A stretch of 32,000 nucleotides of DNA, from assembly GCA_016700375.1 (NCBI GenBank), contig CP065016.1, positions 630,001 through 662,000 of the forward strand, in the 5' to 3' direction. This document shows positions 4,171 through 31,116 of the stretch, one piece after another. Below the pieces are notes generated by a model. That model ran no database searches. It had not been told where the DNA came from and saw only the letters and a program-made list of their open reading frames with translations. This stretch comes from Candidatus Saccharimonadota bacterium (GTDB lineage: Bacteria > Patescibacteriota > Saccharimonadia > Saccharimonadales > UBA4665). Position 1 is the stretch's first letter. Each line of letters opens with the position of its first letter. Made by a program: the position numbers and the translations under genes.

Positions 4171-4500
4171 TGCACTTTTTGCCTATGAACCATGCACAAA
4201 AATGCACGATTCATAGGTCGTAAAAAGTCAATGTCCCTATTAGTACGCTTCGGCTACACATGTTGCCATGCTTACACCTTGCGCCTATCAACCAGATAGT
4301 CTTTCTGGGGGATCATGGGGAAATCTAATCTTGAGGCTAGTTTCGCGCTTAATATGCTTTCAGCGCTTATCTATTCCGCACGATAGCTACTCAGCAATGC
4401 CCTTGGTAGAACAACTGATACACCAGCGGTGCGTCCGCCCCGGTCCTCTCGTACTAGGGGTAGATCCTCTCAAATTTCCTTGCGTCCACAGCGGATATAA

Positions 4501-4534
<34 letters not shown>

Positions 4535-4562
4535 ACGTACCTCTTTAACCGGCGAACAGCCG

Positions 4563-4593
<31 letters not shown>

Positions 4594-4904
4594 AGATGAG
4601 CCGACATCGAGGTGCCAAACAGCATCGTCTATGTGAACTATTGGATGCTATAAGCCTGTTATCCCCGGCGTAACTTTTATCCGAAAGCGCTGCCGATACC
4701 ACACTCTTGTACAAATGTACTGACAGCGGAAAACTTACTCCGACTTTCGTCCCTGCTCGGCTTGTAGGCCTCACAGTCAAGCTAGCTTATGCGTATACAC
4801 TATCACTACGATTTCCATCCGTAGTTAGCTAACCTTTGAACGCCTCCGATACTCTTTAGGAGGCAACCGCCCCAGTTAAACTACCCACCAGACACGGTCC
4901 GGAA

Positions 4905-5082
4905 GCCGGAAATTGCATGCAATTTCTTCGGCTTGTGTACCAATTATCCTGTCACCTGTCACGCATGAATTAACAATTACCATGTAACAATTGAGTTCCA
5001 ATCGTTACAGGTTACATGGTCATCCAATGTGACACGTTACAGGTTACATGTGACACAACCCAAATTGTATACAATTTGCGGC
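4905..5082 (-). repeat. 23S insertion in about helix 79: GTTACA/TGTCAC module copy 1 with flanking palindromes
   Basis: The core at about 4935-5056 is homologous to 6306-6426 and 7078-7198. It is flanked by GAAATTGCATGCAATTTC (4909-4926) and CAAATTGTATACAATTTG (5061-5078). Confidence 0.85.
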
Positions 5083-5527
5083 TCCCGTAAGAACAAGATC
5101 ATAACAAGGGTGATATTTCACTGGTGGCTCCACCAAGACTAGCGTCTCAGCTTCAAAGCCTCTCACCTATACTACACATGTTATAACCCGGCTCAATGCC
5201 AAGCTGTAGTGAAGCTGCACGGGGTCTTTTCGTCCTGCTGCGGACAGACGGCATCTTTACCGTCAATGCACTTTCACCGAGCTCTTCGTTGAGACAGTAC
5301 CCATATCATTACGCCATTCGTGCGGGTCAGAACTTACCTGACAAGGAATTTCGCTACCTTAGGACGGTTATAGTTACCGCCGCCGTTCACTGGGGCTTCA
5401 GTTCGCTGCATACACAACTCCCCTTAACCTTCCAGCACTGGGCAGGCGTCAGCCCGTATACATCCACTTTCGTGTTAGCACAGACCTATGTTTTTGGTAA
5501 ACAGTTGCATGGGTTCTTTAGCTGCGG

Positions 5528-5800
5528 CCCCCTCACTCTAGCTACGCTAATGAGACAAAACCTACGGTTTTTTCTCATCGCTCCGGGCAAATGGAATACA
5601 TTTGCTCGGGCTGCTCTTTTTCCCTTCTGGGCTATAAGAACAGTTTTCGCATAGTGAGCTTTAGAGGTCAGCTTTCTAATTGATATGTCTCTAAAAATTG
5701 TTCGATTTGTCTCACTGTAAGAAGTTATAAACTTACATGCTGAGACAGGTTTTCAAAAAGAAAACTGGCTAACTCACCTGTCGTAGACAGAGTGAGGGGG
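5528..5800 (-). repeat. 23S insertion in helix 63 region (about 270 nt) containing leader cassette copy 2 (5552-5626)
   Basis: Closed by the 12-bp stem ccccctcactct (5528-5539) with agagtgaggggg (5789-5800). The interior has GAGACAAAACCTACGGTTTTTTCTCATCGC...CAAATGGAATACATTTG...GGGCTGCTCTTTTTCCCTT plus further hairpins. Confidence 0.8.
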
Positions 5801-6288
5801 CAGACCTTATCCCGAAGTTACGGTCGCTTGTTTGCCGAGTTCCTTAACGAAGAATCACTCGTACACCTTGGTCTTCTCGACCTGAGCACCTGTGTCGGTT
5901 TGCGGTACGGATGGCATGTACCACGCGTTATATTGCTTTTCTAGTCAGCACTTTCATAAGAATTCAACCTGATGGTCGTTTCATTCGTACGCATTTCTCG
6001 TACTTAGACGGATATAACCATGAATCCGCTCCTACTACTATGCCGCGCACATATAACAAATACATGCCAGTACGGGAATATTAACCCGTTGTCCATCGCC
6101 TACGCTACGCGCCTCGGCTTAGGACCGACTAACCCTGGGACGATTACCGTGGCCCAGGAAACCTTGCTCTTTCGGTGGGCAGGATTCTCACCTGCCTTAT
6201 GGTTACTCATTCCAACATTCTCACTTCCTCACGCTCCACCAAACCTCACGGTTCAACTTCAACGCTGAGAGGAACGCTCCTCTACCGA

Positions 6289-6443
6289 GCAATGCACAGC
6301 ATTGCAATTATCATGTCACAATTATCATGTCACAATGAATTACCGATTGGCGTGTAACGATTGAAGCTCAATGGTTACATGTTACAGGGTAATCCTAGGT
6401 GACATGTTACAAGTTACATGGTAATCGCGATGCCATGCATCGC
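6289..6443 (-). repeat. 23S insertion in helix 45: GTTACA/TGTCAC module copy 2 with flanking hairpins
   Basis: Core 6306-6426. Flanks are GCAATGCacaGCATTGC (6289-6305) and GCGATGCcatGCATCGC (6427-6443). Confidence 0.85.
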
Positions 6444-7057
6444 TCTCACATCTTCGGTGCTATGCTTAGCCCCGTTACATTTTCCGCGCAGGGTCTCTTG
6501 ACTAGTGAGCTGTTACGCACTCTTTAAATGAATGGCTGCTTCTAAGCCAACATCCTAGTTGTTTAAGAAACCCCACCTCGTTTCCCACTTAGCATAGACT
6601 GAGGGACCTTAGATGGTGATCTGGGCTGTTTCCCTTTTGAGCGACGAGCTTAGCCCCGCCGTTCTAACTGCTGTAGTTCCACTGATAGTATTCGTAGTTT
6701 GTCAAGGGTGGGTAATCTTGCGACCCCCAGTCCGAAACAGAGCTCTACCCCTACCAGCTACCGTACAACGCTAGCCCTAAAGCTATTTCGAGGAGAACCA
6801 GCTATCTCCAGGTTCGATTGGCATTTCACCGCTAACCACAGGTCATCCGGGCGTGTTGCAACTCGCTACGGTTCGGTCCTCCACGTCGTTTTACCGACGC
6901 TTCAACCTGCCCATGGTTAGGTCACCTGGTTTCGGGTCTATTTACTACGACTGAATGCCCTATTCAGACTCGCTTTCGCTTGGCTTACGTCATATGACTT
7001 AAGCTTGCCGTAGCAAATAACTCGTTGGATCGTTCTACAAAAAGCACGCCGTCACGA

Positions 7058-7219
7058 GCTCATCACTAATGATGAGCAATTAGCCTTTATCCTGTCACCT
7101 GTCACAATGGATTACCCATTACTGTGTAACGATTAAGGTTCAAACGTTACAAGTTACATGGTAATTCTATGTGACATGTTACAGGTCAATGGTTACATGC
7201 TCTTCACGCAGTGAAGAGC
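7058..7219 (-). repeat. 23S insertion in helix 25: GTTACA/TGTCAC module copy 3 with flanking hairpins
   Basis: Core 7078-7198. Flanks are GCTCATCActaaTGATGAGC (7058-7077) and GCTCTTCACgcaGTGAAGAGC (7199-7219). Confidence 0.85.
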
Positions 7220-7397
7220 CCGCTCCGACTCCTTGTACGCACACAATTTCAGGTTCTATTTCACTCCCCTCCCGGGGTTCTTTTAACCTTTCCCTCGCGG
7301 TACTTGTTCTCTATCGATCATGTAATATATTTAGCCTTGGAGGGTGGACCCCCCAGATTCAGTCAGGATTTCACGTGCCCCGACCTACTCGACAACC

Positions 7398-7560
7398 GTG
7401 TCTCGCAAGCGAGGCACAGAGTCATGAGTTAAGAGTCACGAGTTAAGAGTAGCTTGCCTCGGCTCTGCCGAGTTTATAAAACAGCAGCTACGCTGCTGGC
7501 ATTTTCCACTCTTGTCTCTTGTCTCTTGTCTCTTTCGTCTGTGTCTTGCTCGCAAGACAC
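7398..7560 (-). repeat. 23S domain I insertion built on GAGTTAAGAG / CTCTTGTCTC repeats
   Basis: The plus strand has ATGAGTTAAGAGTCACGAGTTAAGAG ... CTCTTGTCTCTTGTCTCTTGTCTC. It is bracketed by GTGTCTCGCaaGCGAGGCAC (7398-7417) and GTGTCTTGCtcGCAAGACAC (7541-7560). A related copy sits in the 23S leader at 8335-8395. Confidence 0.75.
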
Positions 7561-7644
7561 TTTGCAAATATAAGGTTGATGAAACTTGGCGTACCGGGCT
7601 ATCACCGTCTATGGCGCAGCTTTCCAACTGCTTCTGCTCGCCTC

Positions 7645-7810
7645 ATCAATTTCTAACCTTATGCTAGACACTGGTAGATCTAGCTGCCTCGTGTGGACTC
7701 CCGCAGAAGCGGACTCCCACACAAGGATGTTTGCAATGTCACAACCCCTAATTTACATTCGTCTACCAACTTATTTGCCAGTAATAAATTACCAGGCAAA
7801 AGCAAAATAG
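7645..7810 (-). other. 23S domain I expansion (about 150 nt extra relative to E. coli about 270-290)
   Basis: The segment between the conserved blocks GGAACAGCCCAAACC and GCAGAAGCAGTTGGAAAG is about 165 nt here, against about 25 nt in E. coli as recalled. It contains hairpins such as GTGTGGGAGTCCGCttctGCGGGAGTCCACAC. Boundaries are approximate. Confidence 0.55.
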
Positions 7811-8097
7811 GTTTGGGCTGTTCCGGATTCGCTCGCCACTACTACCGGAATCGTTGTTTACTTTCTCTTCCTCGCCCTACTAAGATGTTTCAGTTCAGGC
7901 GGTTACCTACTCACTATCCTATATATTCAGATAGCGGTGACTAGACATTACTCTAGCCGGGTTTCCCCATTCGGACATCTCCGGATCAAAACATATTTGG
8001 CTGTTCCCCGGAGCTTTTCGCAGCTCATCACGTCCTTCTTCGGTATTACATGTCAAGGCATCCGTTGTGTGCGCTTGAGTAACTTTTTACGAATAAC

Positions 8098-8183
8098 GGG
8101 ACAAAACTACGTTTTTTCCCGTCGCTTCGCTGCTCTTTTTCCTTAGTGGACAGACTTTTGCCGGAATAAATCCGTCAAAAGTC
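8098..8183 (-). repeat. two-hairpin leader cassette, copy 3 (ends about 5 nt before 23S helix 1)
   Basis: Plus strand GGGACAAAACTACGTTTTTTCCC-gTCGC-ttcGCTGCTCTTTTTCCTT, then GACTTTTG-CCGGAATAAATCCG-tCAAAAGTC. Confidence 0.75.
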
Positions 8184-8301
8184 AGAGTTTGATTTGACGA
8201 GAACAAACTTCGTTTGTTCCGTTTTTGTGCAATTGTCCGATGGTTCTTAAAGAACTATCGGACGAATCACGAACATTTACTCGTAAAAATAAACGCTCGT
8301 G

Positions 8302-8317
8302 TTGACTAGTTATTGGT
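8302..8317 (-). other. 23S precursor processing stem, 5' strand
   Basis: Perfect 16-nt complement of 4155-4170. Confidence 0.75.
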
Positions 8318-8334
8318 ATGTACAAATCAGGGTT

Positions 8335-8395
8335 ATGAGTTAAGACGTAAGAGTTAAGGAATCTTATCTCTTAAATCATGCCTCTTATCTCTAAT
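8335..8395 (-). repeat. GAGTTAAGA / CTCTTATCTC repeat element in the 23S leader (relative of 7398-7560)
   Basis: The plus strand ATGAGTTAAGACGTAAGAGTTAAGGAATCTTATCTCTTAAATCATGCCTCTTATCTCT has the same arm motifs as the domain I insertion, but with a minimal loop. Confidence 0.6.
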
Positions 8396-8695
8396 TTATT
8401 CCAATAGCCGTTTGTCTACTGTGACTATTTGTTCGTAAAAACAAATAGTCTTGCTTTCTTGTTCGCTGTAACTCTCGAGGGGGTACCCCGAGCGATGTCG
8501 AGCGAACAAATTCTCTTCTCTAACATTTCAACTTGTTAAGTTGCGACTCAAGACACTTCACCGTTGTCCGTATCTTTCGAAAAAGAAAAGATGACGATGC
8601 GTTTTTAGCTTGAGTTTAAGCTTAAAGCTTGGCGGTTTATTTCCGTTTGGTCGGTCTTACCGAAGCCTCACTGTCTAAACTCAAGCATCCGTACA

Positions 8696-8724
8696 ATTCT
8701 ACTCTCTTTTACAGAGGCGGTCAA
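8696..8724 (-). promoter_or_regulatory. sigma70-type promoter for the 23S-5S unit
   Basis: Minus sense TTGACC (8724-8719), 17 nt, TAGAAT (8701-8696). It lies just downstream of the tRNA-unit terminator. Confidence 0.6.
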
Positions 8725-8793
8725 GCCAACCGCGTAGTCATTTTTGCAACACCTTCGCCTCTGATACTGCTTGACGATTGTGTAATATATATC

Positions 8794-8825
8794 ACAAAAA
8801 AATCCGCATACGCGGATTTTTGATT
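8794..8825 (-). terminator. intrinsic terminator after the tRNA-Ala/tRNA-Ile unit (bidirectional shape)
   Basis: ATCCGC-atac-GCGGAT stem flanked by an A-run and a T-run. The minus sense ends in TTTTTTT. Confidence 0.7.
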
Positions 8826-8827
8826 CT

Positions 8828-8870
8828 TGGTGGGCGATGAGGGACTCGAACCTCCGACCTCGTCATTATC
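8828..8870 (-). pseudogene. orphan exact copy of the 3' half of tRNA-Ile (anticodon G34 to CCA)
   Basis: 43/43 nt identical to 8907-8949. Identity stops exactly at the first anticodon base. Confidence 0.9.
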
Positions 8871-8906
8871 TCCTCGGGAGAAAATGATTTGTAAATCAGT
8901 TCTAGC

Positions 8907-8983
8907 TGGTGGGCGATGAGGGACTCGAACCTCCGACCTCGTCATTATCAGTGACGCGCTCTAACCAGCTGAGCTAATCGCCC
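8907..8983 (-). tRNA. tRNA-Ile (anticodon GAU), CCA encoded
   Basis: Minus sense GGGCGAT-TA-GCTC-AGCTGGTTA-GAGC-G-CGTCA-CTGATAA-TGACG-AGGTC-GGAGG-TTCGAGT-CCCTC-ATCGCCC-A-CCA folds as a canonical cloverleaf. Confidence 0.95.
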
Positions 8984-9032
8984 ATCAGCTAGAATTGATT
9001 GAATTTGTAAATTTGCTTCGCTAACGCTCAGC

Positions 9033-9071
9033 TGTCATTTGCAGTGACGCGCTCTAACCAGCTGAGCTAAT
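9033..9071 (-). pseudogene. orphan copy of the tRNA-Ile D-arm and anticodon arm (5' part), anticodon mutated to GCA
   Basis: 30/30 nt identical to 8949-8978 (9042-9071). Homology continues through the anticodon stem (CTGCAAATGACA versus CTGATAATGACG). The acceptor 5' strand has diverged and there is no T-arm. Confidence 0.85.
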
Positions 9072-9168
9072 ATTACCTCACGCCATATCGCTTTTATTTT
9101 AGTTATTCCGCGATTTGGGTTCAGTATATATTTTAGCTAACCGCTAAAATATCGCCCTAGGTTATAAA

Positions 9169-9203
9169 TGGTGGAGACGCTGTGCTTGAGGCACTGCGCC
9201 CCC
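9169..9203 (-). other. tRNA-like minihelix ending in ...TCTCCACCA
   Basis: Minus sense is GGGGGCG-CAGTGCCTCAAGCACAG-CGTCTCC-A-CCA. It forms a 7-bp acceptor-like stem (2 G-U pairs), a short hairpin, a discriminator A and CCA. There is no D arm or anticodon arm. Confidence 0.3.
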
Positions 9204-9214
9204 ATGATAGTAGT

Positions 9215-9285
9215 GAGACACCTTTCATCAGGTTTTCTCATCGCACCGCGCAAATGGAATACATTTGTTCTCGGGCTTCCCTTCC
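9215..9285 (-). repeat. two-hairpin leader cassette, copy 4 (between tRNA-Ala and the minihelix/tRNA-Ile)
   Basis: Plus strand GAGACACCTTTCATCAGGTTTTCTC-aTCGC-accgcgCAAATGGAATACATTTG-ttctcGGGCTTCCCTTCC. Confidence 0.75.
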
Positions 9286-9306
9286 TGCAACCACAGAAAG
9301 CTACTT

Positions 9307-9383
9307 TGGTGGAGTGACGGGGACTCGAACCCCGGACCCCCTGCTTGCAAAGCAGGTGCTCTAGCCAACTGAGCTATCACCCC
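9307..9383 (-). tRNA. tRNA-Ala (anticodon UGC), CCA encoded
   Basis: Minus sense is GGGGTGATAGCTCAGTTGGCTAGAGCACCTGCTTTGCAAGCAGGGGGTCCGGGGTTCGAGTCCCCGTCACTCCACCA. It carries the G3:U70 identity pair and the anticodon loop TTTGCAA. Confidence 0.95.
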
Positions 9384-9402
9384 TCGTCCAAACTACCGCA
9401 GT

Positions 9403-9431
9403 ATTTTAACGGAATACACCTTTAAAAACAA
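9403..9431 (-). promoter_or_regulatory. candidate promoter for the tRNA-Ala/tRNA-Ile unit
   Basis: Minus sense TTGTTT (9431-9426), 17 nt, TAAAAT (9408-9403). It lies about 20 nt upstream of the tRNA-Ala 5' end. Confidence 0.5.
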
Positions 9432-9457
9432 GCACGGAGGCTGGAAAATTTGATATA

Positions 9458-10048
9458 GTGATACGCGTGAACATAGGAATAGCACCGGCAATCGACGAAG
9501 ACATAGAAGATATCCGAGCCATACTCGAACATGGCATACGAAGCAAAATGTATCGGGGCGACCTTGCCTGGGGCGAAGCTGCCACTGACGAAAAACAGCT
9601 AAAGGCCATTATTGCTGGCGGCAATATGTACGTAGCCTACACAGAAGAAGACATAGTAGCGGTATTTATGCTGTTCTGGGACGACCCTGGGCGTTGGGGT
9701 CAGCAACCCCCTGTCGCCGGGTACCTACATCGTTTTGTCGTTGCGCCTGGGCTGCGTGGCCAAAACGTGGGTAGCCAAATAATAGACCTCATTTGCAAGG
9801 AGGTTGCCAAAAATGGCCGTCAATTCCTTCGCCTGACCGCCCCAGCCGATAACGAAAAACTAAAGGCATACCACCTAAAAAACGGCTTCACCCGTGCCGA
9901 CCATAAGGCCAACCCGACTCACCTCTCCGAACCCATAGCCTTCTTTGAGCGTCCCGCTGCAGCAGAGAAAAAAGCATCACAAACTTCACAGAAGAAGTCA
10001 TTCGCCCAAAAACTCCGCAACATCCGCCTCAGCCAACGCTATGAATAG
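9458..10048 (+). CDS. GNAT family N-acetyltransferase
   Basis: 196 aa with acetyl-CoA motif A (HRFVVAPGLRGQNVGSQII). The ORF-track start is the GTG at 9458. An in-frame GTG at 9467 lies 7 nt after an extended -10 box TGaTATAGT (9451-9459), so the mRNA may be leaderless. Confidence 0.8.
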   Translation: MIRVNIGIAPAIDEDIEDIRAILEHGIRSKMYRGDLAWGEAATDEKQLKAIIAGGNMYVAYTEEDIVAVFMLFWDDPGRWGQQPPVAGYLHRFVVAPGLRGQNVGSQIIDLICKEVAKNGRQFLRLTAPADNEKLKAYHLKNGFTRADHKANPTHLSEPIAFFERPAAAEKKASQTSQKKSFAQKLRNIRLSQRYE

Positions 10049-10119
10049 CCCCAATTTATGCTGCAGAAACAGGCCTAGGTTAGCCTAGAAGACTTCTGGG
10101 CTTAGGGCGTAGCGATTCA

Positions 10120-10710
10120 TTATTTCTTGTGGAGGTTTTGTCTCATCCCACATAAAATAAACTGGCACCCAGGGCTTCCACTGCGTCTAACAAAATAGAG
10201 GTGATATCTATGCGTTGAAGGCGGCTCAGTAATGACCGCATGTGCTGAGCCCGTTTGAGTCGCTTCATATGCTTGTATTTTCTCTACCTGCGCTTTTGCA
10301 GCAGCACAGTTGTGACCAACCATTACGCACACATAGTTCACTGCGAGTTTTTCGAGCTCAATCGCTTCCGGGTCGGTCGCAGAAGGTACATATGCTGCGG
10401 CTGGGTATCTTCGAGTATTCTCATCGTATCTAGCACGGGTAATGTCTACCCTCGCCCGTGAAAGCTCAACCTGCAACCGAGTATTTTCACGCTCTAACCG
10501 TTTTTCCGGAGTGTTCGGAACATACTTTGCTATAGCTACAGACAGTAACAACAGCATTAGGACACCGAAAAACGTCAATGACGATTCGTTCGTGCGCCAT
10601 CGTTTTATAAATGAGGGCTTCACTTCTATGGGGTTTTTTGGACTAGGAAATTCTCTTGGTTGCATAATAAGTCTAGTATACCTTGGCTTCAACAAGACTG
10701 TCGACCCCAT
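10120..10710 (-). CDS. hypothetical membrane-anchored protein
   Basis: 196-aa ORF with one hydrophobic helix (LTFFGVLMLLLLSVAIA) followed by a charged coiled-coil-like stretch. No family was recognised. The start is uncertain (M1 or M16). Confidence 0.55.
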   Translation of the reverse strand: MGSTVLLKPRYTRLIMQPREFPSPKNPIEVKPSFIKRWRTNESSLTFFGVLMLLLLSVAIAKYVPNTPEKRLERENTRLQVELSRARVDITRARYDENTRRYPAAAYVPSATDPEAIELEKLAVNYVCVMVGHNCAAAKAQVEKIQAYEATQTGSAHAVITEPPSTHRYHLYFVRRSGSPGCQFILCGMRQNLHKK

Positions 10711-10824
10711 GAAACGGCACTCTCATTAGCTTCACATGATCGTAATTTTGAGCTATTACTCTCGATTGCATTTTATTTTAAACATCACAATACTTCATAA
10801 AGAAGTTGCCATATGCTTAGTAGT

Positions 10825-11883
10825 TCACATTGCAGCGATGTTGTAGTGTGTGGCGGAATAGATGTACTGATCTATAAAAAGTTGCTTGAAGGGGACAATG
10901 GAGTTTTGTTCGTAGAAAATGAGTGTGGCTTCTTTGTAAGCCGTTTCGTCTACCGCACGGTACGATATGGGAGCATAGCCGTTTGCAAGCAAAACGCCAT
11001 TTGCGAGCAAACGAGCTGTCCTTTTGTTGCCGTCGGCAAAGGGCTGTATGTAGCTCATACCCAATACAACCATCAGCGCTTTTTCGTAAACAGAATCAAT
11101 TGCGTTGACGTAGACTAGTAGCTGCTCCAATGCCTCTCTAATCTGGAAAGCATTGCCGAGAGGAACATATTCTGTACCAGTTATGCCAACAACCGTCTGT
11201 CGCAAATTTCGGGCAACACCTAATTCTGAGACGGCAAGCTCCTGTATCTTTTCTATTGCTGAGACGCTTGGTTCGTGCCAAAGCTCAAGATTTTCATAGA
11301 CAAATGTAAAGGCAGCTTTCTGCCCGAGCAACATTTGCACCTCAAACTCAGTATTTTTTGGCGACTTTATGCCATAAAGTAGTAGCTGTTCGGTATCGAG
11401 TAGTGTGTATGTATTTCCTTCTATCCGGGCAGATTTCCATGACATCTCTACAACAAAACGCTCCAATTCACGCTTGCGAACATCGCTATTCTCATTCGCT
11501 TTGTTTCGATAACTTTCTGTCGCGCTATCAAGCTGTTCATTTTCTTGCTCACCCACCATTGTAACTGGGGGCAACTCAAATAGATGATGGTTATAGCCCG
11601 TCTGCATTATCCGGTCTTGCTGTGGTTTTCCCAAGTAGGTATCCACGTCAAACGTTCGGAGCAGTAGTCCTTTGCGCTCTAACGTATATCGTATCGACCG
11701 TCCGGCACCAATTCGCGCTAGATACCCCGCGGCCAACAGATTCGAAAGGCTACGTTTTATAGTTACCAGAGATGTTTTTCTCCCGCTACGGGCGTGTATC
11801 TCTGACGAAGAGTAGCTTTTACCCTTCTCGAAGTAGCTTAGAACTATATTATTCGTATCATTCATAGATAATAATCGTATCAT
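10825..11883 (-). CDS. Fic/Doc family protein with N-terminal winged-helix domain; active-site His replaced by Gln
   Basis: The ORF track gives 10825..11946. The Fic core motif reads QPFADGNKRTAR (11011-11046). The first 21 codons of the long form overlap the 16S terminator hairpin. I therefore prefer the ATG at 11883, 9 nt after TATAAT (11898-11893), or the ATG at 11865. Confidence 0.8.
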   Translation of the reverse strand: MIRLLSMNDTNNIVLSYFEKGKSYSSSEIHARSGRKTSLVTIKRSLSNLLAAGYLARIGAGRSIRYTLERKGLLLRTFDVDTYLGKPQQDRIMQTGYNHHLFELPPVTMVGEQENEQLDSATESYRNKANENSDVRKRELERFVVEMSWKSARIEGNTYTLLDTEQLLLYGIKSPKNTEFEVQMLLGQKAAFTFVYENLELWHEPSVSAIEKIQELAVSELGVARNLRQTVVGITGTEYVPLGNAFQIREALEQLLVYVNAIDSVYEKALMVVLGMSYIQPFADGNKRTARLLANGVLLANGYAPISYRAVDETAYKEATLIFYEQNSIVPFKQLFIDQYIYSATHYNIAAM

Positions 11884-11897
11884 AGTGATACGATTAT
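11871..11897. promoter_or_regulatory. 12-bp perfect inverted repeat (operator-like) over the Fic gene promoter/start
   Basis: ATAATCGTATCA-tag-TGATACGATTAT overlaps the TATAAT box and the preferred ATG. Confidence 0.5.
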
Positions 11898-11902
11898 AGT
11901 CA

Positions 11903-11937
11903 ACAGAAAAGAAGGCCTCTCGCAAGTGATGGCCTTC
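11903..11937 (-). terminator. intrinsic terminator after 16S rRNA
   Basis: GAAGGCC-13 nt-GGCCTTC followed on the minus strand by TTTTCTGTT. It lies downstream of the 16S processing stem. Confidence 0.6.
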
Positions 11938-11971
11938 TTTGTTCATTCAGATTGTATCAGTGCTTTCCTGA

Positions 11972-19425: not shown

Positions 19426-22359
19426 CTATTCGTCTTCAGTTGGATTTTTCATATGAATCGTGCCGTCACTATCTATCACTATGGTGTCTTCACCCGGCTG
19501 AGCCACCTCACTTTGACTTTTTGGTTGTGGGCTATTCGAAATCTCTAGAGATTTCGGTGGAGCCTGTACGTCAAGATTTCCCTCGGGCGCCTTTAGCCCC
19601 TTCTTCAGCTCTGCTGCGATATCTTTTACTTCCTGCTGGTCGAGTTCTGCGCTCGAGACATTACCGGACTCATAGCTCCCTTGTGGAGTCGTGCTATCAG
19701 TATTTTGCGAAGCCGCGGGCATTGCGGGGCTGTCGGTAACAGGATTTGCTGCTGCTTGAGGCTGGATCTGAGTTTCTACCGGAGCATTCGGCTGTGGAGT
19801 AACTGTGGGCCGTGGTGTCGCTGGCACACTTTTCTGTTTCGCAAGCCATTCATCTAGAAATGACCCTGAGCCAGCCGATGGAGAGCCCATGACAGGAGCT
19901 GGGGGTGCAGATACGCTTGCTGGGGCTCCACCGCCCGGTGCCGGAGCCGAACCAGCAAATGGGTTGGCAAATGGCTTTGGTTCAGGAGTCTTTGTTGCTA
20001 AACGTTCAAATATCTCTTTCTCGACCACAGCCCTTGGTTTGCCATACTTCGCAGCGGATAGCTGCTTGAGCGCATCAGCAAGCCCCGGATTTGGGTTGCC
20101 TAGAGGTGGAAGCGTCGCCATACTGAAAGATTGTGTCGGAACACCATTTATGAGGGTGCGGACAATAGTGTTTGCGTTTGGAACACGGAGCAAGTCGTCT
20201 CCGTCAAACTGGGGCTGAAAATAGCGACTGAGGCTTTCCACATCATTCTGGCCAATACGAAAAGATACAATTGTACCGATGTTGCCAAACACGGCATCAC
20301 GGATTTCCTCCGTTAGCTGGGTTGTAAACTGGTTTGCCACAATGAGGTTCAGGTGGTATTTGCGCGCTTCACTCATGATAGTCGCAAAGCTATCGGTAGA
20401 GAAGTTCTGAAACTCATCTACATACAGTGCAAAGTCGTTTCGTTCGCTTTCTGGGACATTTGAGCGACTCATGGCGGCGGCCTGGAACTTCATAACGAAC
20501 ACCATACCCAGGAGCTTGCTATTTAGCTCACCCGTCCTACCCTTACTCAGGTTAACAAGCAGTATTTTTTTGTTATCCATAATATCGCGCAGATCAAATG
20601 AGCTTTTTGTTTGACCTATAATATTGCGCATCATTTCATTACTAAGGAACGCTCCAAACTTGCTTACAAACCAACTCACGACCTCACCGAAATCATTACT
20701 GCGCTGACTCTGGGGCATTTCTTTCTCCCAGAACTCAATTACATTCGGGTCTTTCACATACGGTAGCTTCTGTTTAACATACTGTGGGTCACGAAATAGC
20801 TTCGGGATATCTACAAATGTACTCCCCGCAGGGTCAGCCATAACTGTTAGAGCGGCATTGCGAAACAAGCTTTCATAGCGCGGGCCCATAATACCCTGGT
20901 GCTGTGGGTCATACAGCTTGTAGAGCATGTTTAGGACTTCCTGAATAATAAAGTCCTTCTGGTCTGGTGTATGGAATTCGAATAAGTTCAGCCCCATAGG
21001 GTATGCCATGTCGGACGGGCAAAAATAGATAACGTCTTCGGTACGCTCTTTTGGCACCATCGCTAGTAGTTTTTCTGCCGTATCACCGTGTGGGTCAACA
21101 AACGCAAAGCCGTCACCGCGCAACATATCTTGTAGGGCTAGGTTCTCAAGAAACGTTGATTTACCTGTACCGGTCTGCCCAACTACATACATATGACGCT
21201 GTCTATCTGTCAGCCCAATTCGAACCGGTTTCTTGACGCCACGAAATACATTAAAGCCGAGCAGTAAGCCTTCATTCGGCATGTTTCGAGGACCGTCTAC
21301 CTGCTTCGATTCTTGCCGCTCAAGTTGTGAGGTCGGAATGCTACGCTGATCAGGAAAGTGGAATATTGTAGCAAGCTCAACCGAATTCAATATGTTCTTT
21401 TTCTTATGCTGCGGAAATGCCCTGAGAAGAAAATTCGTTACTAATTCTGAGGGGTCAGTTGCCGAATGATACTCAAACCCATTCCGTCCGGGGGAATCAA
21501 AAAGAGAGAAACTCGCTACTATATTATTTACAATTCCTTGAGAGCGTTGCGAGACGTTTGATGACGCTATTACCCGTATTGCAACCTCAAAGCCCGGGTG
21601 ACGAGTTTTATCTTCTATAGCGTCTATAACAGATTGCTCGAGCGAAGATATTTCTTTTGGCTTATCCTTTTCTTCTTTTGGCTCGGGAGGCTTTACAAAT
21701 GCGGTTACCAAATCTTTGGCTAATGCACCGGCTGACAAACCTTTGTCTGTGCCTTTCTTTTTTGCGGATGCAAAATCGGTCGCTGTTTTTCGCCACGAAG
21801 TATCTGCGGGACGAAATAGGAGCTGTATAGCCGCACCATCCTCATTTTCCATAGTAGAGAGAGCGTTCAATATTGACTGGAAGGCGTCACGCTTCAAATC
21901 TTGGTAGGTCGCAATAGGATACGCGAACTTTTCTTTTAAGTTAAACTGCCCACCTATAACCGCGTTCATACCACCCACTTGACTAAAAATATTATACTCA
22001 GGAACCATTTCAAGGCGAGCCGCAGGGTATGCGCTCACGATAGCTTGCTGCACAACATTTATGTAGTCTGCGGGCACCGCAACGTATAATCGAACGAACC
22101 CTTTTAGTCCGACGATTTCGAACGAAAAATGACGTTGGCCATGAAAGCGATTTTTAAAACTTTGCTCAATTGTGCTCGCAATAATGTTGTAAATAATTTG
22201 TGCTTTAGAAATATTTTCATCAACTAGGTCTCGAACATCTCGACCATTTACCTCTGTATCTTCGCTTGCTGGAGGCAAGTGTATAAGCATCGGGACCATA
22301 GAAAGTCCACGCTCGTATTTCAACTTTTTTGCGTTAATTCTTTGTAGACTTAATAACAT
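19426..22359 (-). CDS. VirD4/TraD-like type IV secretion coupling-protein family ATPase with long disordered C-terminal tail
   Basis: 977 aa. It has Walker A VVGQTGTGKST, FVDPHGD, and Walker B-like ALYVDEFQNF. The roughly 370-aa N-terminal part has no obvious TM helix. The last roughly 200 aa are P/A/S/Q-rich. Confidence 0.8.
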   Translation of the reverse strand: MLLSLQRINAKKLKYERGLSMVPMLIHLPPASEDTEVNGRDVRDLVDENISKAQIIYNIIASTIEQSFKNRFHGQRHFSFEIVGLKGFVRLYVAVPADYINVVQQAIVSAYPAARLEMVPEYNIFSQVGGMNAVIGGQFNLKEKFAYPIATYQDLKRDAFQSILNALSTMENEDGAAIQLLFRPADTSWRKTATDFASAKKKGTDKGLSAGALAKDLVTAFVKPPEPKEEKDKPKEISSLEQSVIDAIEDKTRHPGFEVAIRVIASSNVSQRSQGIVNNIVASFSLFDSPGRNGFEYHSATDPSELVTNFLLRAFPQHKKKNILNSVELATIFHFPDQRSIPTSQLERQESKQVDGPRNMPNEGLLLGFNVFRGVKKPVRIGLTDRQRHMYVVGQTGTGKSTFLENLALQDMLRGDGFAFVDPHGDTAEKLLAMVPKERTEDVIYFCPSDMAYPMGLNLFEFHTPDQKDFIIQEVLNMLYKLYDPQHQGIMGPRYESLFRNAALTVMADPAGSTFVDIPKLFRDPQYVKQKLPYVKDPNVIEFWEKEMPQSQRSNDFGEVVSWFVSKFGAFLSNEMMRNIIGQTKSSFDLRDIMDNKKILLVNLSKGRTGELNSKLLGMVFVMKFQAAAMSRSNVPESERNDFALYVDEFQNFSTDSFATIMSEARKYHLNLIVANQFTTQLTEEIRDAVFGNIGTIVSFRIGQNDVESLSRYFQPQFDGDDLLRVPNANTIVRTLINGVPTQSFSMATLPPLGNPNPGLADALKQLSAAKYGKPRAVVEKEIFERLATKTPEPKPFANPFAGSAPAPGGGAPASVSAPPAPVMGSPSAGSGSFLDEWLAKQKSVPATPRPTVTPQPNAPVETQIQPQAAANPVTDSPAMPAASQNTDSTTPQGSYESGNVSSAELDQQEVKDIAAELKKGLKAPEGNLDVQAPPKSLEISNSPQPKSQSEVAQPGEDTIVIDSDGTIHMKNPTEDE

Positions 22360-23495: not shown

Positions 23496-24538
23496 TATAC
23501 TAAGCCCCAATCCCTCCGACACCTCGGTGTGTAGAATTGGGGCATATGTGTATGAAGAAGAACCTAACCCGACATCAAGTTATTGCCTATCGTAAACGAG
23601 TGTTAACTGAAGCCGATGCGAAAGGCGCGGCAATCGCTGCCCGAATGTTTGGGATCCATCGGGATACTATCTATGCTTGGCGGATCGAACTGTTCCCGCA
23701 GAAGCCTGGACCAAAAGGCAGGGTATCCTGGCAGACGAATGAAGACATTGAGGATTTGGTGCTACAAATCAGGCTGGGACTATCCTATGGCCCGAAGCGA
23801 ATCGTCGATGAGATGAGTGACTCTGGAATATCCATTGGCGAGAAAGCTGTCCGCGGCATTATTGAACGAGCCGACCTCGTAAAGCACCAGAAACATCCAA
23901 AGAAAAAGCCAACGAGACCGTTCTACGCGCCCTATCCAGGCTACCGAGTGCAGATTGACACTAAGGCTGCACCGGTTCGTCCGGACGAAGATAAACGACG
24001 GAGTCGGAGACAGCAGTTTACAGCGATAGACATTGTCAGCAAGATCCGGTACCTGGCGGTCAAGGATGGCTTGTCGAATAGCAACTCAATCGCCTTTGTG
24101 CGTGAAGCCCTGGCGTTCTACGAATCGATTGGTATTACGGTGGAATGTGTCCAGACAGATAACCACTCCACGTTCACCAATTTGTCTACTGGCGGTAACA
24201 AAAAGCGTGACCATGAGCTCAGACGTATCCACCCGTTCACGCAGTACCTGCTCGACCGGGGCATCGAGCACAAGCTATCCCGACCGGGTACACCCCAACA
24301 TAATGGTTTTGTCGAGCGGAGCCATCGGACAGACGAAGAAGAGTTTTACCACGTCACCAAAACGACCGAGCTTGATGTCGTCGCGTTCAACGAAGCAATG
24401 AAACTATGGCAGAACGAATACAATCGCGTGAGACGGCATAGCAGCTGCAATAACCTGCCGCCAATGGAGCACTATGAAGCGGTATGGAAAGGAACAGTAA
24501 CTCATGTCTAAGTGTCTGGACAATTGGGGCTTAGTACA
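23496..24538 (+). mobile_element. IS481-family insertion sequence, intact (1043 bp)
   Basis: Terminal inverted repeats are TATACTAAGCCCCAAT (23496-23511) and its complement TGTACTAAGCCCCAAT (24538-24523). A 6-bp direct duplication TCCTGA sits at 23490-23495 and 24539-24544. There is a single DDE transposase ORF. Confidence 0.9.
23537..24511 (+). CDS. IS481-family transposase (HTH + rve/DDE integrase core)
   Basis: The N-terminal HTH is AARMFGIHRDTIYAWR. The DDE residues lie in VQIDTK, VQTDNHSTF and NGFVERSHRT. The likely real start is the ATG at 23546 or 23552 (MKKNLTRHQ) rather than the TTG at 23537. Confidence 0.9.
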   Translation: MGHMCMKKNLTRHQVIAYRKRVLTEADAKGAAIAARMFGIHRDTIYAWRIELFPQKPGPKGRVSWQTNEDIEDLVLQIRLGLSYGPKRIVDEMSDSGISIGEKAVRGIIERADLVKHQKHPKKKPTRPFYAPYPGYRVQIDTKAAPVRPDEDKRRSRRQQFTAIDIVSKIRYLAVKDGLSNSNSIAFVREALAFYESIGITVECVQTDNHSTFTNLSTGGNKKRDHELRRIHPFTQYLLDRGIEHKLSRPGTPQHNGFVERSHRTDEEEFYHVTKTTELDVVAFNEAMKLWQNEYNRVRRHSSCNNLPPMEHYEAVWKGTVTHV

Positions 24539-28156: not shown

Positions 28157-28867
28157 TTAGTCGACACGTTGAGCTTGCGAGCCAAGCTGGGCATCGAGAC
28201 ACTTGTTCACCTCGGCATCGGCCAGCTTATTGAGCTCGCGCGGCACGTGGTCAAATGACACTTTCTCAAACTTTGGAAGAAGCTGTTGTATAGCATCGTG
28301 AATAGGCCATAGGTCGCGGTTTTTCACTTTGAATATTTTTTTCATTTGGTTCACCACCAGCATACTGTCCATATACACGTGCACGCTCCTCGCCTGAAGC
28401 CGTAGCGCAGCCTCCAAGCCAAACTTCAAGGCCTGATACTCCGCCTGATTGTTTGTTGTAATTCCCAGAAAAACCCCCTCACTATGTACGATGTTCCCGT
28501 CCATGTCGAGCAGTACATACCCGCTTGCGGAGGGGCCAGGATTGCCCCGTGAGCCTCCATCCGCATACAATTGCACCTCTGTTATTTGCGTAGTATTTTT
28601 ATCATCACTACTTTCCGGTACTCCTTTTTCATCGCCCTCGGCAACTGCGTCAATCCTCTTTGCGAGCTCCCAGTCTCGGTCTGTAATCATCTGCTTCGGC
28701 TCGTGTGTCGACAGCCAAAATTCAACAACATTCCATTCATTCTGCCAGCGCGGATGATGGTCGAGGTCATTCACAATTGCACTCACCTTTTCCATAAATG
28801 CCCATGCATGATGAAAGTCGCTAAAGACAAATTGTTTATAAAGCCCATGTTTTGTTTCGGTCCACAT
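28157..28867 (-). CDS. fusion protein: pterin-4a-carbinolamine dehydratase (PCD/DCoH)-like domain + RNase HI-like domain
   Basis: Residues 1-75 match PCD (FVFSDFHHAWAFMEKVSAIVNDLDHHPRWQNEWNVVEFWLSTHE...ITDRDWELAKRID). Residues about 100-236 match RNase H, with the DEDD residues in YADGGSRGNPG, NNQAEYQAL, VYMDSMLVV and NKLADAEVN. Confidence 0.85.
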   Translation of the reverse strand: MWTETKHGLYKQFVFSDFHHAWAFMEKVSAIVNDLDHHPRWQNEWNVVEFWLSTHEPKQMITDRDWELAKRIDAVAEGDEKGVPESSDDKNTTQITEVQLYADGGSRGNPGPSASGYVLLDMDGNIVHSEGVFLGITTNNQAEYQALKFGLEAALRLQARSVHVYMDSMLVVNQMKKIFKVKNRDLWPIHDAIQQLLPKFEKVSFDHVPRELNKLADAEVNKCLDAQLGSQAQRVD

Positions 28868-29441: not shown

Positions 29442-29567
29442 GGTAGTATTTTACCACATTATGAGGTGTTTGTCATACTTACGCTAGTGTTTTCTTGCCA
29501 CTACCCCTATAATGATGGGTAAGTGGAACACCCACTCGATGCCTAGAGCCACTCCATAGGAGCAGGT

Positions 29568-29681
29568 ATGGCGAAAAATCCGTATCAAACATTTAAGCTC
29601 GTCATGAGTCTACTGTTTGATACGGTCACACTGGAAACGGTGTCGGGTAGCGTAGGCTATCGCTCATGGCGAGCTTTTTAA
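29568..29681 (+). CDS. candidate 37-aa small protein
   Basis: This ORF is below the ORF-track size cut-off and encodes MAKNPYQTFKLVMSLLFDTVTLETVSGSVGYRSWRAF. TAGGAG lies 6 nt upstream. The ORF ends 22 nt before the next gene. Confidence 0.3.
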   Translation: MAKNPYQTFKLVMSLLFDTVTLETVSGSVGYRSWRAF

Positions 29682-30433: not shown

Positions 30434-30685
30434 ATGAGATATCACTGCCTGTATAAACTATCTGGGAATACCCGCTGTAACCGCTCGATACCACGCGGTT
30501 ATCTTCTCTGTAAAGAGCACAGAGGTGTGCATACCGTTTTGCCGGTGGTTGAGCCGACAATATCTCAAAACCGGCTTGCTCGAGGCGTAGAAGCAATCTG
30601 TGTAGCTCGTACATCAATGGCTGAACCTCACCCAAAGGGCAAGATATTCGTAAGAGATAAAATCGGCCGGTCGGTGCTGCTATGA
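30434..30685 (+). CDS. hypothetical small Cys/His-rich protein
   Basis: 83 aa. An ATGA stop/start overlap with the next gene (30682-30685) suggests translational coupling. It has a CxxxxxxxxxC...CxxH pattern near the N-terminus. Confidence 0.4.
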   Translation: MRYHCLYKLSGNTRCNRSIPRGYLLCKEHRGVHTVLPVVEPTISQNRLARGVEAICVARTSMAEPHPKGKIFVRDKIGRSVLL

Positions 30686-31116
30686 CAGCCTCAGGTATCG
30701 GTCGGCCGCCACAATTCTCAAATGCCGCACAGTTACAGTTATTGATAGACAATTACTTTTCTTCAGCCACAAAGTCATCACCCGCAAGACCTCTAACTAT
30801 AACCGGCCTTATGCTTCACTGCGGGTTTGAGAGTCGGCAGTCATTTTATGACTATGAGAAAAAACCCGAGTTTTCTTACACTATAAAAAGAGCCCGGCTT
30901 ATGATTGAAAACGTTTATGAGGAACTCTTGCAGAGCGGTCGAGGAGCGGGCGCAATTTTTGCTCTTAAAAACTTCGGCTGGACGGATAAAAGCGAAGTAA
31001 GTATTGAAAGGGACTCAATAGACTATTCGAGCATGACAGATGAAGAACTTGAATCACGTCTGATAGACAGCATTAAAAGAGATTACGGCGTGACGCTTCC
31101 ACGAAAGATGCTGTAG
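30682..31116 (+). CDS. phage terminase small subunit-like protein
   Basis: 144 aa. It shows the TerS-like pattern GRPPQFSNAAQLQLLIDNYF...ITGLMLHCGF...FYDYEKKPEFSYTIKRARLMIE...IFALKNFGWTDK. Confidence 0.7.
   Translation: MTASGIGRPPQFSNAAQLQLLIDNYFSSATKSSPARPLTITGLMLHCGFESRQSFYDYEKKPEFSYTIKRARLMIENVYEELLQSGRGAGAIFALKNFGWTDKSEVSIERDSIDYSSMTDEELESRLIDSIKRDYGVTLPRKML

Follow-up and report, generated by a model that had tools for sequence, protein, structure and literature searches.

Where part of a tRNA is repeated next to a tRNA gene, the copy is usually taken as an integration scar that marks the border of a genomic island. In the Williams 2002 classification, 3′ segments of tRNA genes reportedly occur as direct repeats at the attL and attR ends of integrase islands and prophages, with the anticodon loop as a sublocation. 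Multi-intron, split and permuted tRNA genes with bulge-helix-bulge introns are found in archaea and algae, and group I introns lie in the anticodon loops of bacterial tRNAs such as cyanobacterial tRNA-Leu and Azoarcus tRNA-Ile. Here we analysed a locus of a Candidatus Saccharimonadota bacterium (assembly GCA_016700375.1, contig CP065016.1, positions 630,001 to 662,000; this whole stretch of 32,000 nt is called the window) in which an intact tRNA-Ile(GAU) gene, the inner copy, stands between a 5′ and a 3′ part of a second tRNA-Ile, the outer copy. With a probability of roughly 0.55, we consider that a resident gene received a copy of the native tRNA unit in its anticodon loop and that this arrangement was then inherited, the two copies being kept alike by gene conversion and/or selection.

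The features of the locus are listed below with the method by which each was found. The minus strand is read throughout, and tRNA positions follow tRNA-Ile numbering.

9383-9307, minus: tRNA-Ala(UGC), anticodon called TGC (ARAGORN and Rfam)
9157-9151, minus: displaced 5′ acceptor strand of the outer copy, GGGCGAT (read from the sequence; position homology with the related locus L057)
9072-9150, minus: insert of 79 nt, located between tRNA positions 7 and 8 of the outer copy (sequence reading and fold)
9071-9034, minus: outer 5′ fragment, tRNA-Ile positions 6-43, D-arm and anticodon arm (repeat search)
9033-8984, minus: spacer s1, 49-50 nt (sequence reading)
8983-8907, minus: inner intact tRNA-Ile(GAU) with encoded CCA (ARAGORN; Rfam tRNA model RF00005, 67.1 bits)
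8894-8906, minus: 3′ strand of the helix enclosing the inner tRNA (inverted-repeat search)
8863-8887, minus: hairpin of spacer s2, TCATTTTCTCC-cga-GGAGATAATGA (minimum-free-energy fold)
8870-8828, minus: outer 3′ fragment, G34 to CCA, 43/43 identical to 8907-8949 (repeat search)
8821-8798, minus: intrinsic-terminator-like hairpin and T run, aaaaatccgcgtatgcggattttttt, directly 3′ of the outer 3′ fragment

The locus is similar to each of the described systems only in part. As in integrase att repeats, the displaced copy starts exactly in the anticodon loop and ends with CCA, and a loop core of ~8-10 nt (GATAATGA) is found at both junctions, on either side of the insertion. Here, however, the repeats are separated by 36 nt, there is no integrase and no attP in phage contigs, the 5′ part is duplicated too, and the arrangement is fixed across a clade and includes a whole second tRNA with its own putative processing helix. 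As in the interrupted tRNAs of archaea and algae, the interruptions are in or near the D-, anticodon and T-loops, and the modules found in relatives occupy fixed sites (between positions 22 and 23, and between 55 and 56). In this case, by contrast, the host is a bacterium, the halves overlap and are mutated and cannot be rejoined, and the 'intron' is itself a functional tRNA. Precisely, the exons of an intron-containing gene would join to an intact tRNA, whereas here the halves overlap by 9-10 nt, the anticodon loop reads CTGCAAA and a 79-nt insert follows position 7. No splicing motif or enzyme was identified, the bulge-helix-bulge motif not having been formally searched. The group I introns share with this locus the insertion in the anticodon loop and tRNA-Ile among the hosts, but the insert considered here is ~170 nt long and consists of a tRNA and its flanks, and no Intron_gpI or other intron family was found by Rfam at E ≤ 10 across 8100-9500.

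Structure of the locus

The inner copy at 8983-8907 is the functional gene and would be the sole tRNA-producing copy of the locus. It was the one intact call of ARAGORN, a check that the initial annotation had proposed, and Rfam agreed: with membership in RF00005 defined by the 29-bit gathering threshold and a full cloverleaf, it was the only member at the locus. The outer 5′ fragment scored 24.4 bits against the tRNA model, below the threshold, and the outer 3′ fragment had no tRNA match in the Rfam scan. ARAGORN in intron mode returned chimeric Ala/Ile predictions only. The outer copy cannot yield a tRNA because of the 79-nt insert after position 7 and the mutated anticodon loop.

All the coordinates that had been assigned to the intact gene, the fragments, the spacers (49 and 36 nt), the 13-bp inverted repeat and the 10-nt direct repeat were reproduced, and so were the identities of 43/43 for the 3′ fragment and 30/30 over 9071-9042 for the 5′ one. 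As regards the 5′ fragment, 36/38 positions are identical between 9034-9071 and 8941-8978; the 30/30 stretch covers positions 6-35 and is followed by CTGcaAATGAC, with an anticodon loop of CTGCAAA compared with CTGATAA in the inner gene. Both junctions had been placed at positions 34-35. The 30/30 stretch does end there, but there is no clean cut, because the 5′ fragment extends to position 43, so that it has 9-10 nt (G34-C42) in common with the 3′ fragment. The junction CTGCAAATG is common to the related loci L021, L057, L076, L122, L125 and L129, and it is found with one extra substitution in L123 and L124.

The 5′ fragment had also been described as a piece at 9071-9033 only; this start was incomplete, since the acceptor strand GGGCGAT survives at 9157-9151. 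The strand lies 11 nt past an Ala-like minihelix (described below), the complete outer 5′ part of L057 begins 13 nt past its own minihelix, and the same strand is found in L122. The 79-nt insert that separates it from the rest of the fragment opens, in the predicted fold, with the hairpin attttagc-ggt-tagctaaaat; it is present in L122 and absent from L057 and L021.

Spacer s1 contains, in this order, a GCU..GA/GA..AGC hairpin (9032-9015), the sequence AAATTTACAAAT (9014-9003), which we take to resemble boxA, the 5′ strand of the enclosing helix (9000-8988) and an unpaired TGAT. The motif CCRGCYGAR..GARGCAAATTAACAA of this spacer is kept in ~12 nested loci. The direct repeat ATTTGTAAAT has two copies, at 8887-8896 and 9003-9012. 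An antisense regulation between CAGCTGAGC of s1 and GCTCAGCTG of the D-arm was retained as a fold prediction only, given that CAGCTG is palindromic and that the motif also forms a small hairpin of its own.

The 13-nt inverted repeat, with its one mismatch, lies within a longer 27-nt helix (8894-8920/8974-9000, 89% complementary) that prolongs the acceptor stem. The hairpin of spacer s2 (36 nt, between the inner gene and the outer 3′ fragment) pairs the spacer with the start of the fragment and was predicted in 13 of the 24 nested loci, with TCATT, or a one-base variant, opposite AATGA and a variable apical part (CTCC/GGAG, ATCC/GGAT). The sequence CTCATCGCCCACCA occurs exactly at the gene and the fragment only, against a chance expectation of 0.17 matches at ≤2 mismatches. 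The terminator-like hairpin at 8821-8798 was listed by the scan on the plus strand, and we read this symmetric hairpin as minus; a matching hairpin is found after the outer 3′ part of L021, L057 and L122, and likewise at the remnant loci L026, L029, L070 and L101. Folded as a whole, the 336-nt unit 9160-8825 reached -122 kcal/mol (z = -6.0), and the outer acceptor is predicted to close it by pairing GGGCG, the first 5 nt of 9157-9151, with CGCCC within 8832-8838.

Occurrence in related genomes

We searched one genome per species for exact matches to the 43-nt 3′ part of tRNA-Ile and obtained 112 stretches (L001-L112), nearly all from metagenome-assembled genomes of Candidatus Saccharibacteria/Saccharimonadales, which places the window in a TM7 bacterium of the candidate phyla radiation. 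The full 77-nt tRNA-Ile is identical in most of these genomes and differs at one position in about ten. By BLAST of the tRNA against the loci we found the nested layout in 7/112 (L021, L028, L043, L057, L076, L087 and L098), and partial remnants in at least a dozen further loci, represented by either positions 1-19 ~120 nt upstream or positions 57/61-77 ~160 nt downstream. A gapped pattern (tRNA end, 25-55 nt, TAATGACGAGGTC) was then searched in metagenomes and gave 20 further contigs, ~15 of them distinct. The comparison of related genomes suggested by the initial annotation therefore returned the same layout in 7 of 112 species genomes and in ~15 distinct metagenome contigs.

In all the 24 distinct loci the outer 3′ part begins at positions 35-37, located 36-53 nt past the gene (local alignment), and most of them also have a 5′ part that ends in or near the anticodon loop. 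The shared order is a 5′ part up to the anticodon loop, a spacer, a whole tRNA in a covarying helix, a second spacer and a 3′ part from the anticodon loop; in many of the 24 loci the outer 3′ fragment carries an insert of ~85 nt in its T-loop. L122, a near relative of the window, is an independent metagenome contig whose 16S end is 99.7% identical to that of the window and whose spacer region is ~91% identical; it has the same architecture and its own substitutions, one of which is in the T-loop of the 3′ fragment. L021 is syntenic with the window for 16S, Fic gene, GNAT gene, tRNA-Ala and tRNA-Ile. The layout is kept in L122, L057 and L021, with flanks that differ from the window by 5%, 43% and 47%, respectively, hence there is no presence/absence polymorphism of the type left by a recent event. 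Loss products were also observed: L075 lacks the 3′ duplication, its gene being directly followed by the terminator and the 23S promoter region, and L062 has a simple gene at the outer position. Judged from these comparisons, the nested layout has been inherited vertically across a clade of species.

Gene order and orientation around tRNA-Ile vary widely among L001-L112: both Ala-Ile and Ile-Ala orders occur, 16S and the tRNAs may lie on different strands, and an additional tRNA-Val is found in some species.

An assembly artefact caused by repeated k-mers could be suspected, given the short exact repeats at the locus and the many metagenome-assembled records among the relatives. An independent assembly lacking the fragments had been named as a possible refutation; L122 instead carries them, in the same structure and with single-nucleotide differences of its own, and more than 20 other assemblies share the layout, including a complete chromosome (OY970318.1, L043). 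Because L122 is independent and has its own substitutions, we consider an artefact very unlikely, to the point of being negligible.

The same comparisons bear on the explanation by scars of a tyrosine integrase, according to which the anticodon loop served as attB in two integrations, one from the 3′ side and the other from the 5′ side, and subsequent deletions left 36 and 49 nt of the elements. The extent of the 3′ fragment, from the anticodon loop to CCA, fits this explanation, and so does the loop core that both halves retain, as attL and attR would. In addition, L094 has ~750 nt with two small open reading frames (ORFs) between tRNA-Ile and a 15-nt repeat of the 3′ end, CCTCATCGCCCACCA. 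In this locus (82-930, tRNA-Ile on the plus strand) both small ORFs are membrane-like and CCTCATCGCCCACCA is followed by a terminator, a classic island-like layout, so that integration events may have taken place at tRNA-Ile elsewhere in the clade.

At the locus of the window, no integrase was found, and the 19 larger ORFs scanned included neither a tyrosine nor a serine recombinase; there is no ORF in the 36-nt spacer, and the search turned up a single recombinase-like gene in the window, that of an IS3-type rve transposase (23537-24511) located 14 kb away. No attP-like 3′ half of tRNA-Ile (41 nt) was found in 2.9 million viral contigs, plasmids not having been searched, and the five matches of the last 18 nt to the viral contigs were four unrelated tRNA-Val/tRNA-Leu genes and one non-tRNA site. 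Moreover, integrative elements duplicate the 3′ part only, while here the 5′ part is duplicated too; the supposed spacer remnants pair in a covarying helix that is native to non-nested genes; and the layout is conserved over deep divergence and is not polymorphic. Of what an att duplication would show, we thus observed the 43/43 repeat from G34 to CCA and neither the recombinase, nor the attP match, nor the polymorphism. The initial annotation had proposed a recent integrase footprint or, as another possibility, the scars of repeated integration and excision. Neither agrees with the absence of an integrase or ORF between the repeats, of a viral contig with the 3′ half and of a recombinase among the 19 scanned ORFs, nor with a layout old enough to be conserved where the flanks are saturated. 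We judge the integrase explanation improbable.

Origin of the two copies

The helix that encloses the inner tRNA begins ~4 nt upstream of it and continues immediately downstream of CCA. Many non-nested species have such a helix around tRNA-Ile too, which marks it as a native feature of the gene. In the alignment of 15 nested loci, 82% of the cells pair and 14/14 pairs have changed on both sides. The covariation score was 0.656, compared with 0.25 after shuffling (reached by 0/500 shuffles) and with ≤0.19 when the partners were slid. This covariation shows the helix, as far as alignments can, to be under selection. By the same measure, complementary flanks with compensatory changes across species, it seems to behave like the processing stems of rRNA operons, in which a mature RNA lies in a long covarying helix preceded by a small hairpin and, as here, by a boxA-like AAATT(A/T)ACAA. 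The difference is that the enclosed RNA is a tRNA and not 16S or 23S.

To establish which copy is ancestral we considered the flanks of the outer copy. In L118 this copy has its own helix and T run, with flanks aaataccctacgaa-ttgg...ttcgtagggtattttt, and the intact tRNA-Ile of the non-nested L065 has the homologous flanks aaaaacaccctacgaattgg...ttcgtagggtgtttttt. In L098, too, the outer copy is flanked by a helix of its own. In the non-nested L062 and L027, tRNA-Ile follows directly after the Ala minihelix, which is the start site of the outer copy in nested species. Taken together, the L118/L065 flanks, the L098 helix and the L062/L027 position identify the outer halves as the ancestral resident gene; in terms of this comparative evidence, s1, the inner tRNA with its helix and s2 lie within the anticodon loop of that gene. 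That the two outer halves derive from one gene follows also from their compensated acceptor stems, namely C7:G66 in L118 and GGGGCTA/TAGCCCC in L120. The suggestion of the initial annotation that a small cassette carrying a whole tRNA was inserted in the anticodon loop of an older copy fits both the anatomy and the L118/L065 comparison.

As to the enzymology of the insertion, the transcription and the processing, we infer the following course. The tRNA-Ile(GAU) gene of an ancestral Saccharibacterium would have been interrupted in its anticodon loop by a single duplicative insertion, site-specific or illegitimate, and the inserted DNA would be a second native unit made of the boxA-like leader, the 5′ helix strand, the tRNA and the 3′ helix strand. 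The unit of ~330 nt would be transcribed as one structured precursor ending at the terminator 8821-8798, and the inner tRNA would be freed by means of the enclosing helix, RNase P and 3′ trimming. The outer halves would fold locally (a D-arm/CAGCUGAGC hairpin, the s2 hairpin, the T-arm and the closing helix of the outer acceptor) and would be by-products or, at most, structural parts of the precursor.

A cassette that is still active, formed by s1, tRNA and s2 and moving by means of the repeated loop core of 8-10 nt with mobilisation in trans, would account for the core being duplicated on both sides, for the nested and simple states both found among related species and for the second partial 5′ layer of L123. 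The cassette spacers, however, diverge in step with the flanks (window, L122, L057 and L021), and recombination between the long repeats explains the simple states equally well; we therefore leave an active cassette only a slim chance. Terminal inverted repeats of the type of transposons or miniature inverted-repeat transposable elements were sought by eye at the cassette ends and discarded, being weak in L098 and absent in the window.

Evolution of the halves

Between the window and L021 the halves differ at 2/81 positions and the non-tRNA flanks by 47% (Poisson P ~1e-14); the values for L057 are 7/81 and 43%. The halves do not decay at the rate of the flanks, contrary to what decayed tandem copies, one of the origins first suggested for the fragments, would predict. 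Variants of the inner gene are instead followed by the outer copy: the inner T-stem variant GGTGG/CCACC of L131 recurs in its outer 3′ half, both copies of L113 have the D-loop variant CAGTTGG, and in L119 the outer 3′ half is of the inner type whereas the close relative L120 keeps a divergent one. We attribute the tracking in L131 and L113 and the contrast between L119 and L120 to gene conversion. These alignments show the halves to undergo concerted evolution with the inner gene. As for the 43/43 and 30/30 identities in the window, we explain them by halves being kept alike by gene conversion and/or selection; they had been ascribed to a recent event or to gene conversion, and of these two the conversion is borne out by L131, L113 and L119/L120, while the recent event disagrees with the age of the layout.

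Several observations weigh against our preferred reading. We counted the substitutions of the outer halves relative to the inner gene of each locus and found no bias between stems (46/918) and loops (51/826), so that a selection of the cloverleaf type is unsupported; a claim of structural selection on the outer cloverleaf was dropped for this reason. In several relatives, the tRNA blocks of 20-22 nt flanking the ~85-nt T-loop insert have kept ~98% identity with the inner gene, which is hard to reconcile with a neutral relic subject to conversion, unless the insert is recent in each lineage. Blocks of 20-22 nt are short for conversion of the RecA type. Deletion between direct repeats of 43 nt should be easy and harmless in a genome of ~1 Mb, yet the layout persists; from the sequences, this persistence hints at selection for some unnamed function. 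No mechanism was found for the founding insertion, with no recombinase nearby and no conserved terminal inverted repeats. Finally, the same map would result from two tandem duplications that arose separately and both ended in the anticodon loop.

Some of these points would be better accommodated if the outer shell were a functional RNA, in which the acceptor helix, the T-arm, CCA and the spacer hairpins form a scaffold for the processing and termination of the single essential tRNA-Ile, precisely a tRNA-like 'punctuation' signal for RNase P and 3′ processing. Both the conservation of the halves, far above that of the flanks, and the near-identity of the short blocks around the T-loop insert are consistent with it, as is a layout that persists in spite of an easy repeat-mediated deletion. 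Conservation or covariation extends to parts that are not tRNA, namely the enclosing helix, the s1 motif and the s2 hairpin; L118 and L120 have compensatory changes in the outer acceptor; and the whole unit folds at z = -6.0, closed by the outer acceptor. The nearby Ala-like minihelix covaries and yet keeps G3:U70, which suggests that tRNA-like mini-structures are selected in this spacer. On the other hand, the outer acceptor is broken or lost in L119, L057, L116, L115, L131 and L132, the substitutions have no stem/loop bias, the shell is wholly absent from most related species, and the exact tracking of inner variants in L131 and L113 is predicted by gene conversion and not by structural selection. 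We regard a functional shell as doubtful, although a possibility to be taken seriously.

Genomic context

The locus sits in a split rRNA region on the minus strand, with 16S at 13607-12137, 23S at 8089-4219 and 5S at 3965-3849 (Rfam scan). The ~2.7 kb between 16S and the spacer tRNAs are occupied by a gene with a Fic domain, an ORF of no assigned family and a GNAT gene. In the region 9458-11946 we identified a Fic/DOC-domain protein of 373 aa, a protein without assigned family of 196 aa and, on the opposite strand, a GNAT acetyltransferase of 196 aa. The DNA of L021 resembles the window across the Fic and GNAT genes, in the same location. An ItaT-like toxin acting on Ile-tRNA was considered for the GNAT neighbour and rejected, as its matches were to generic acetyltransferases only. 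Exact-protein look-ups for three window ORFs gave no match, with ORF starts that were probably too long.

Between the terminator-like hairpin and 23S there is a near-consensus promoter-like sequence, TTGACC-17-TAGAAT (8724-8696). The leader past it is conserved in L021, L057, L122 and L075. Considering the terminator-like hairpin together with the promoter and the conserved leader, 23S and 5S appear to form a transcription unit separate from 16S and the tRNA genes. The 23S gene (4219-8089) is 3871 nt long against a model of 2925 positions, corresponding to ~950 nt of insertions.

The Ala-like minihelix (9169-9203, minus strand) has the form GGGGGCGC-hairpin-GCGTCTCCACCA, that is an acceptor stem with G3:U70 and CCA and without D-arm or anticodon arm. 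Homologues are found in the same place in L057, L061, L062, L087, L114 and L118-L121, and their acceptor stems covary: GGGGCAG/CTGCTCC, GGGGTAG/CTACTCC, GGGTGAG/CTCACTCC and GGGGGTGC/GCATCTCC. This covariation suggests that the minihelix is a selected tRNA-like element. In Rfam it had a weak end-to-end match to tmRNA (E = 0.0024). Between tRNA-Ala and the minihelix, at ~9212-9247 (minus strand), there is a hairpin GCGATGAGAAAACC-TGATGAA-AGGTGTCTCAC, the first 8 nt of which, GCGATGAG, are complementary to the 3′ end of tRNA-Ile, CTCATCGC; similar elements are found in L011, L101, L104 and L108.

Elsewhere in the window, in addition to the transposase mentioned above, we found a VirD4/TraD-like coupling ATPase (19426-22359), a fusion of pterin-4a-carbinolamine dehydratase and RNase H/RVT_3 (28157-28867), a gp3-like small-terminase domain (30682-31116) and a LOOT RNA (29540-29661) adjoining the RNase P RNA.

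Insert modules in related loci

The ~85-90-nt module of the relatives consists of three hairpins, GAGAAnUGCC-AGU-GGCA..GCAAGG..GGGGUCGC-GGAA-CGUGACC, and lies in the T-loop, between positions 55 and 56, of disrupted or partial copies of tRNA-Ile (L087, L115, L116, L118, L121, L028, L030 and L101), tRNA-Ala (L021, L003, L098 and L011) and tRNA-Val (L014). By RNAalifold, 22/34 of its pairs have compensatory changes. It had no Rfam match and is absent from the window. A second insert, of 36 nt and two hairpins, is found in the D-loop, between positions 22 and 23, of the outer 5′ half in L118 and L028 and, as the reverse complement of the L118 copy with one mismatch, in L115 (it is also present in L120 and L124). 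The occurrence of this insert in both orientations at the same site points to a mini-element that is mobile or invertible at the DNA level. At permissive thresholds Rfam gave no known family for either the window spacers or the inserts of the relatives.

These modules and the shell could together represent a selected 'tRNA-in-tRNA' architecture, with the shell as a scaffold and with structured modules that colonise the loops of disrupted tRNA-Ile, tRNA-Ala and tRNA-Val copies, as a bacterial counterpart of mobile tRNA introns. We put this forward as a tentative and rather unlikely interpretation.

Discussion

A full-text literature search gave no account of nested tRNA genes in bacteria of the candidate phyla radiation (CPR), of a tRNA inside its own anticodon loop or of the insert modules, which is weak evidence of novelty. 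The known kind to which the locus belongs is the duplication and disruption of a tRNA gene with concerted evolution, and the chance that it represents a new RNA architecture is a minority one. From its sequence, such a nested layout is unusual for a bacterial tRNA locus, and any function of the halves is putative.

The reading as integration scars fails here. The fragments represent the original gene, which a full replacement copy has split in two. Loci of this kind will be annotated wrongly by tRNA finders and by predictors of islands. The layout has been retained through deep divergence in genomes known for their extreme streamlining. Should gene conversion alone maintain the halves, the locus would be a clean natural case of 40-nt repeats that evolve in concert. 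Should the halves be under selection, it would point to a mode of tRNA precursor construction in CPR bacteria that has not been described so far.

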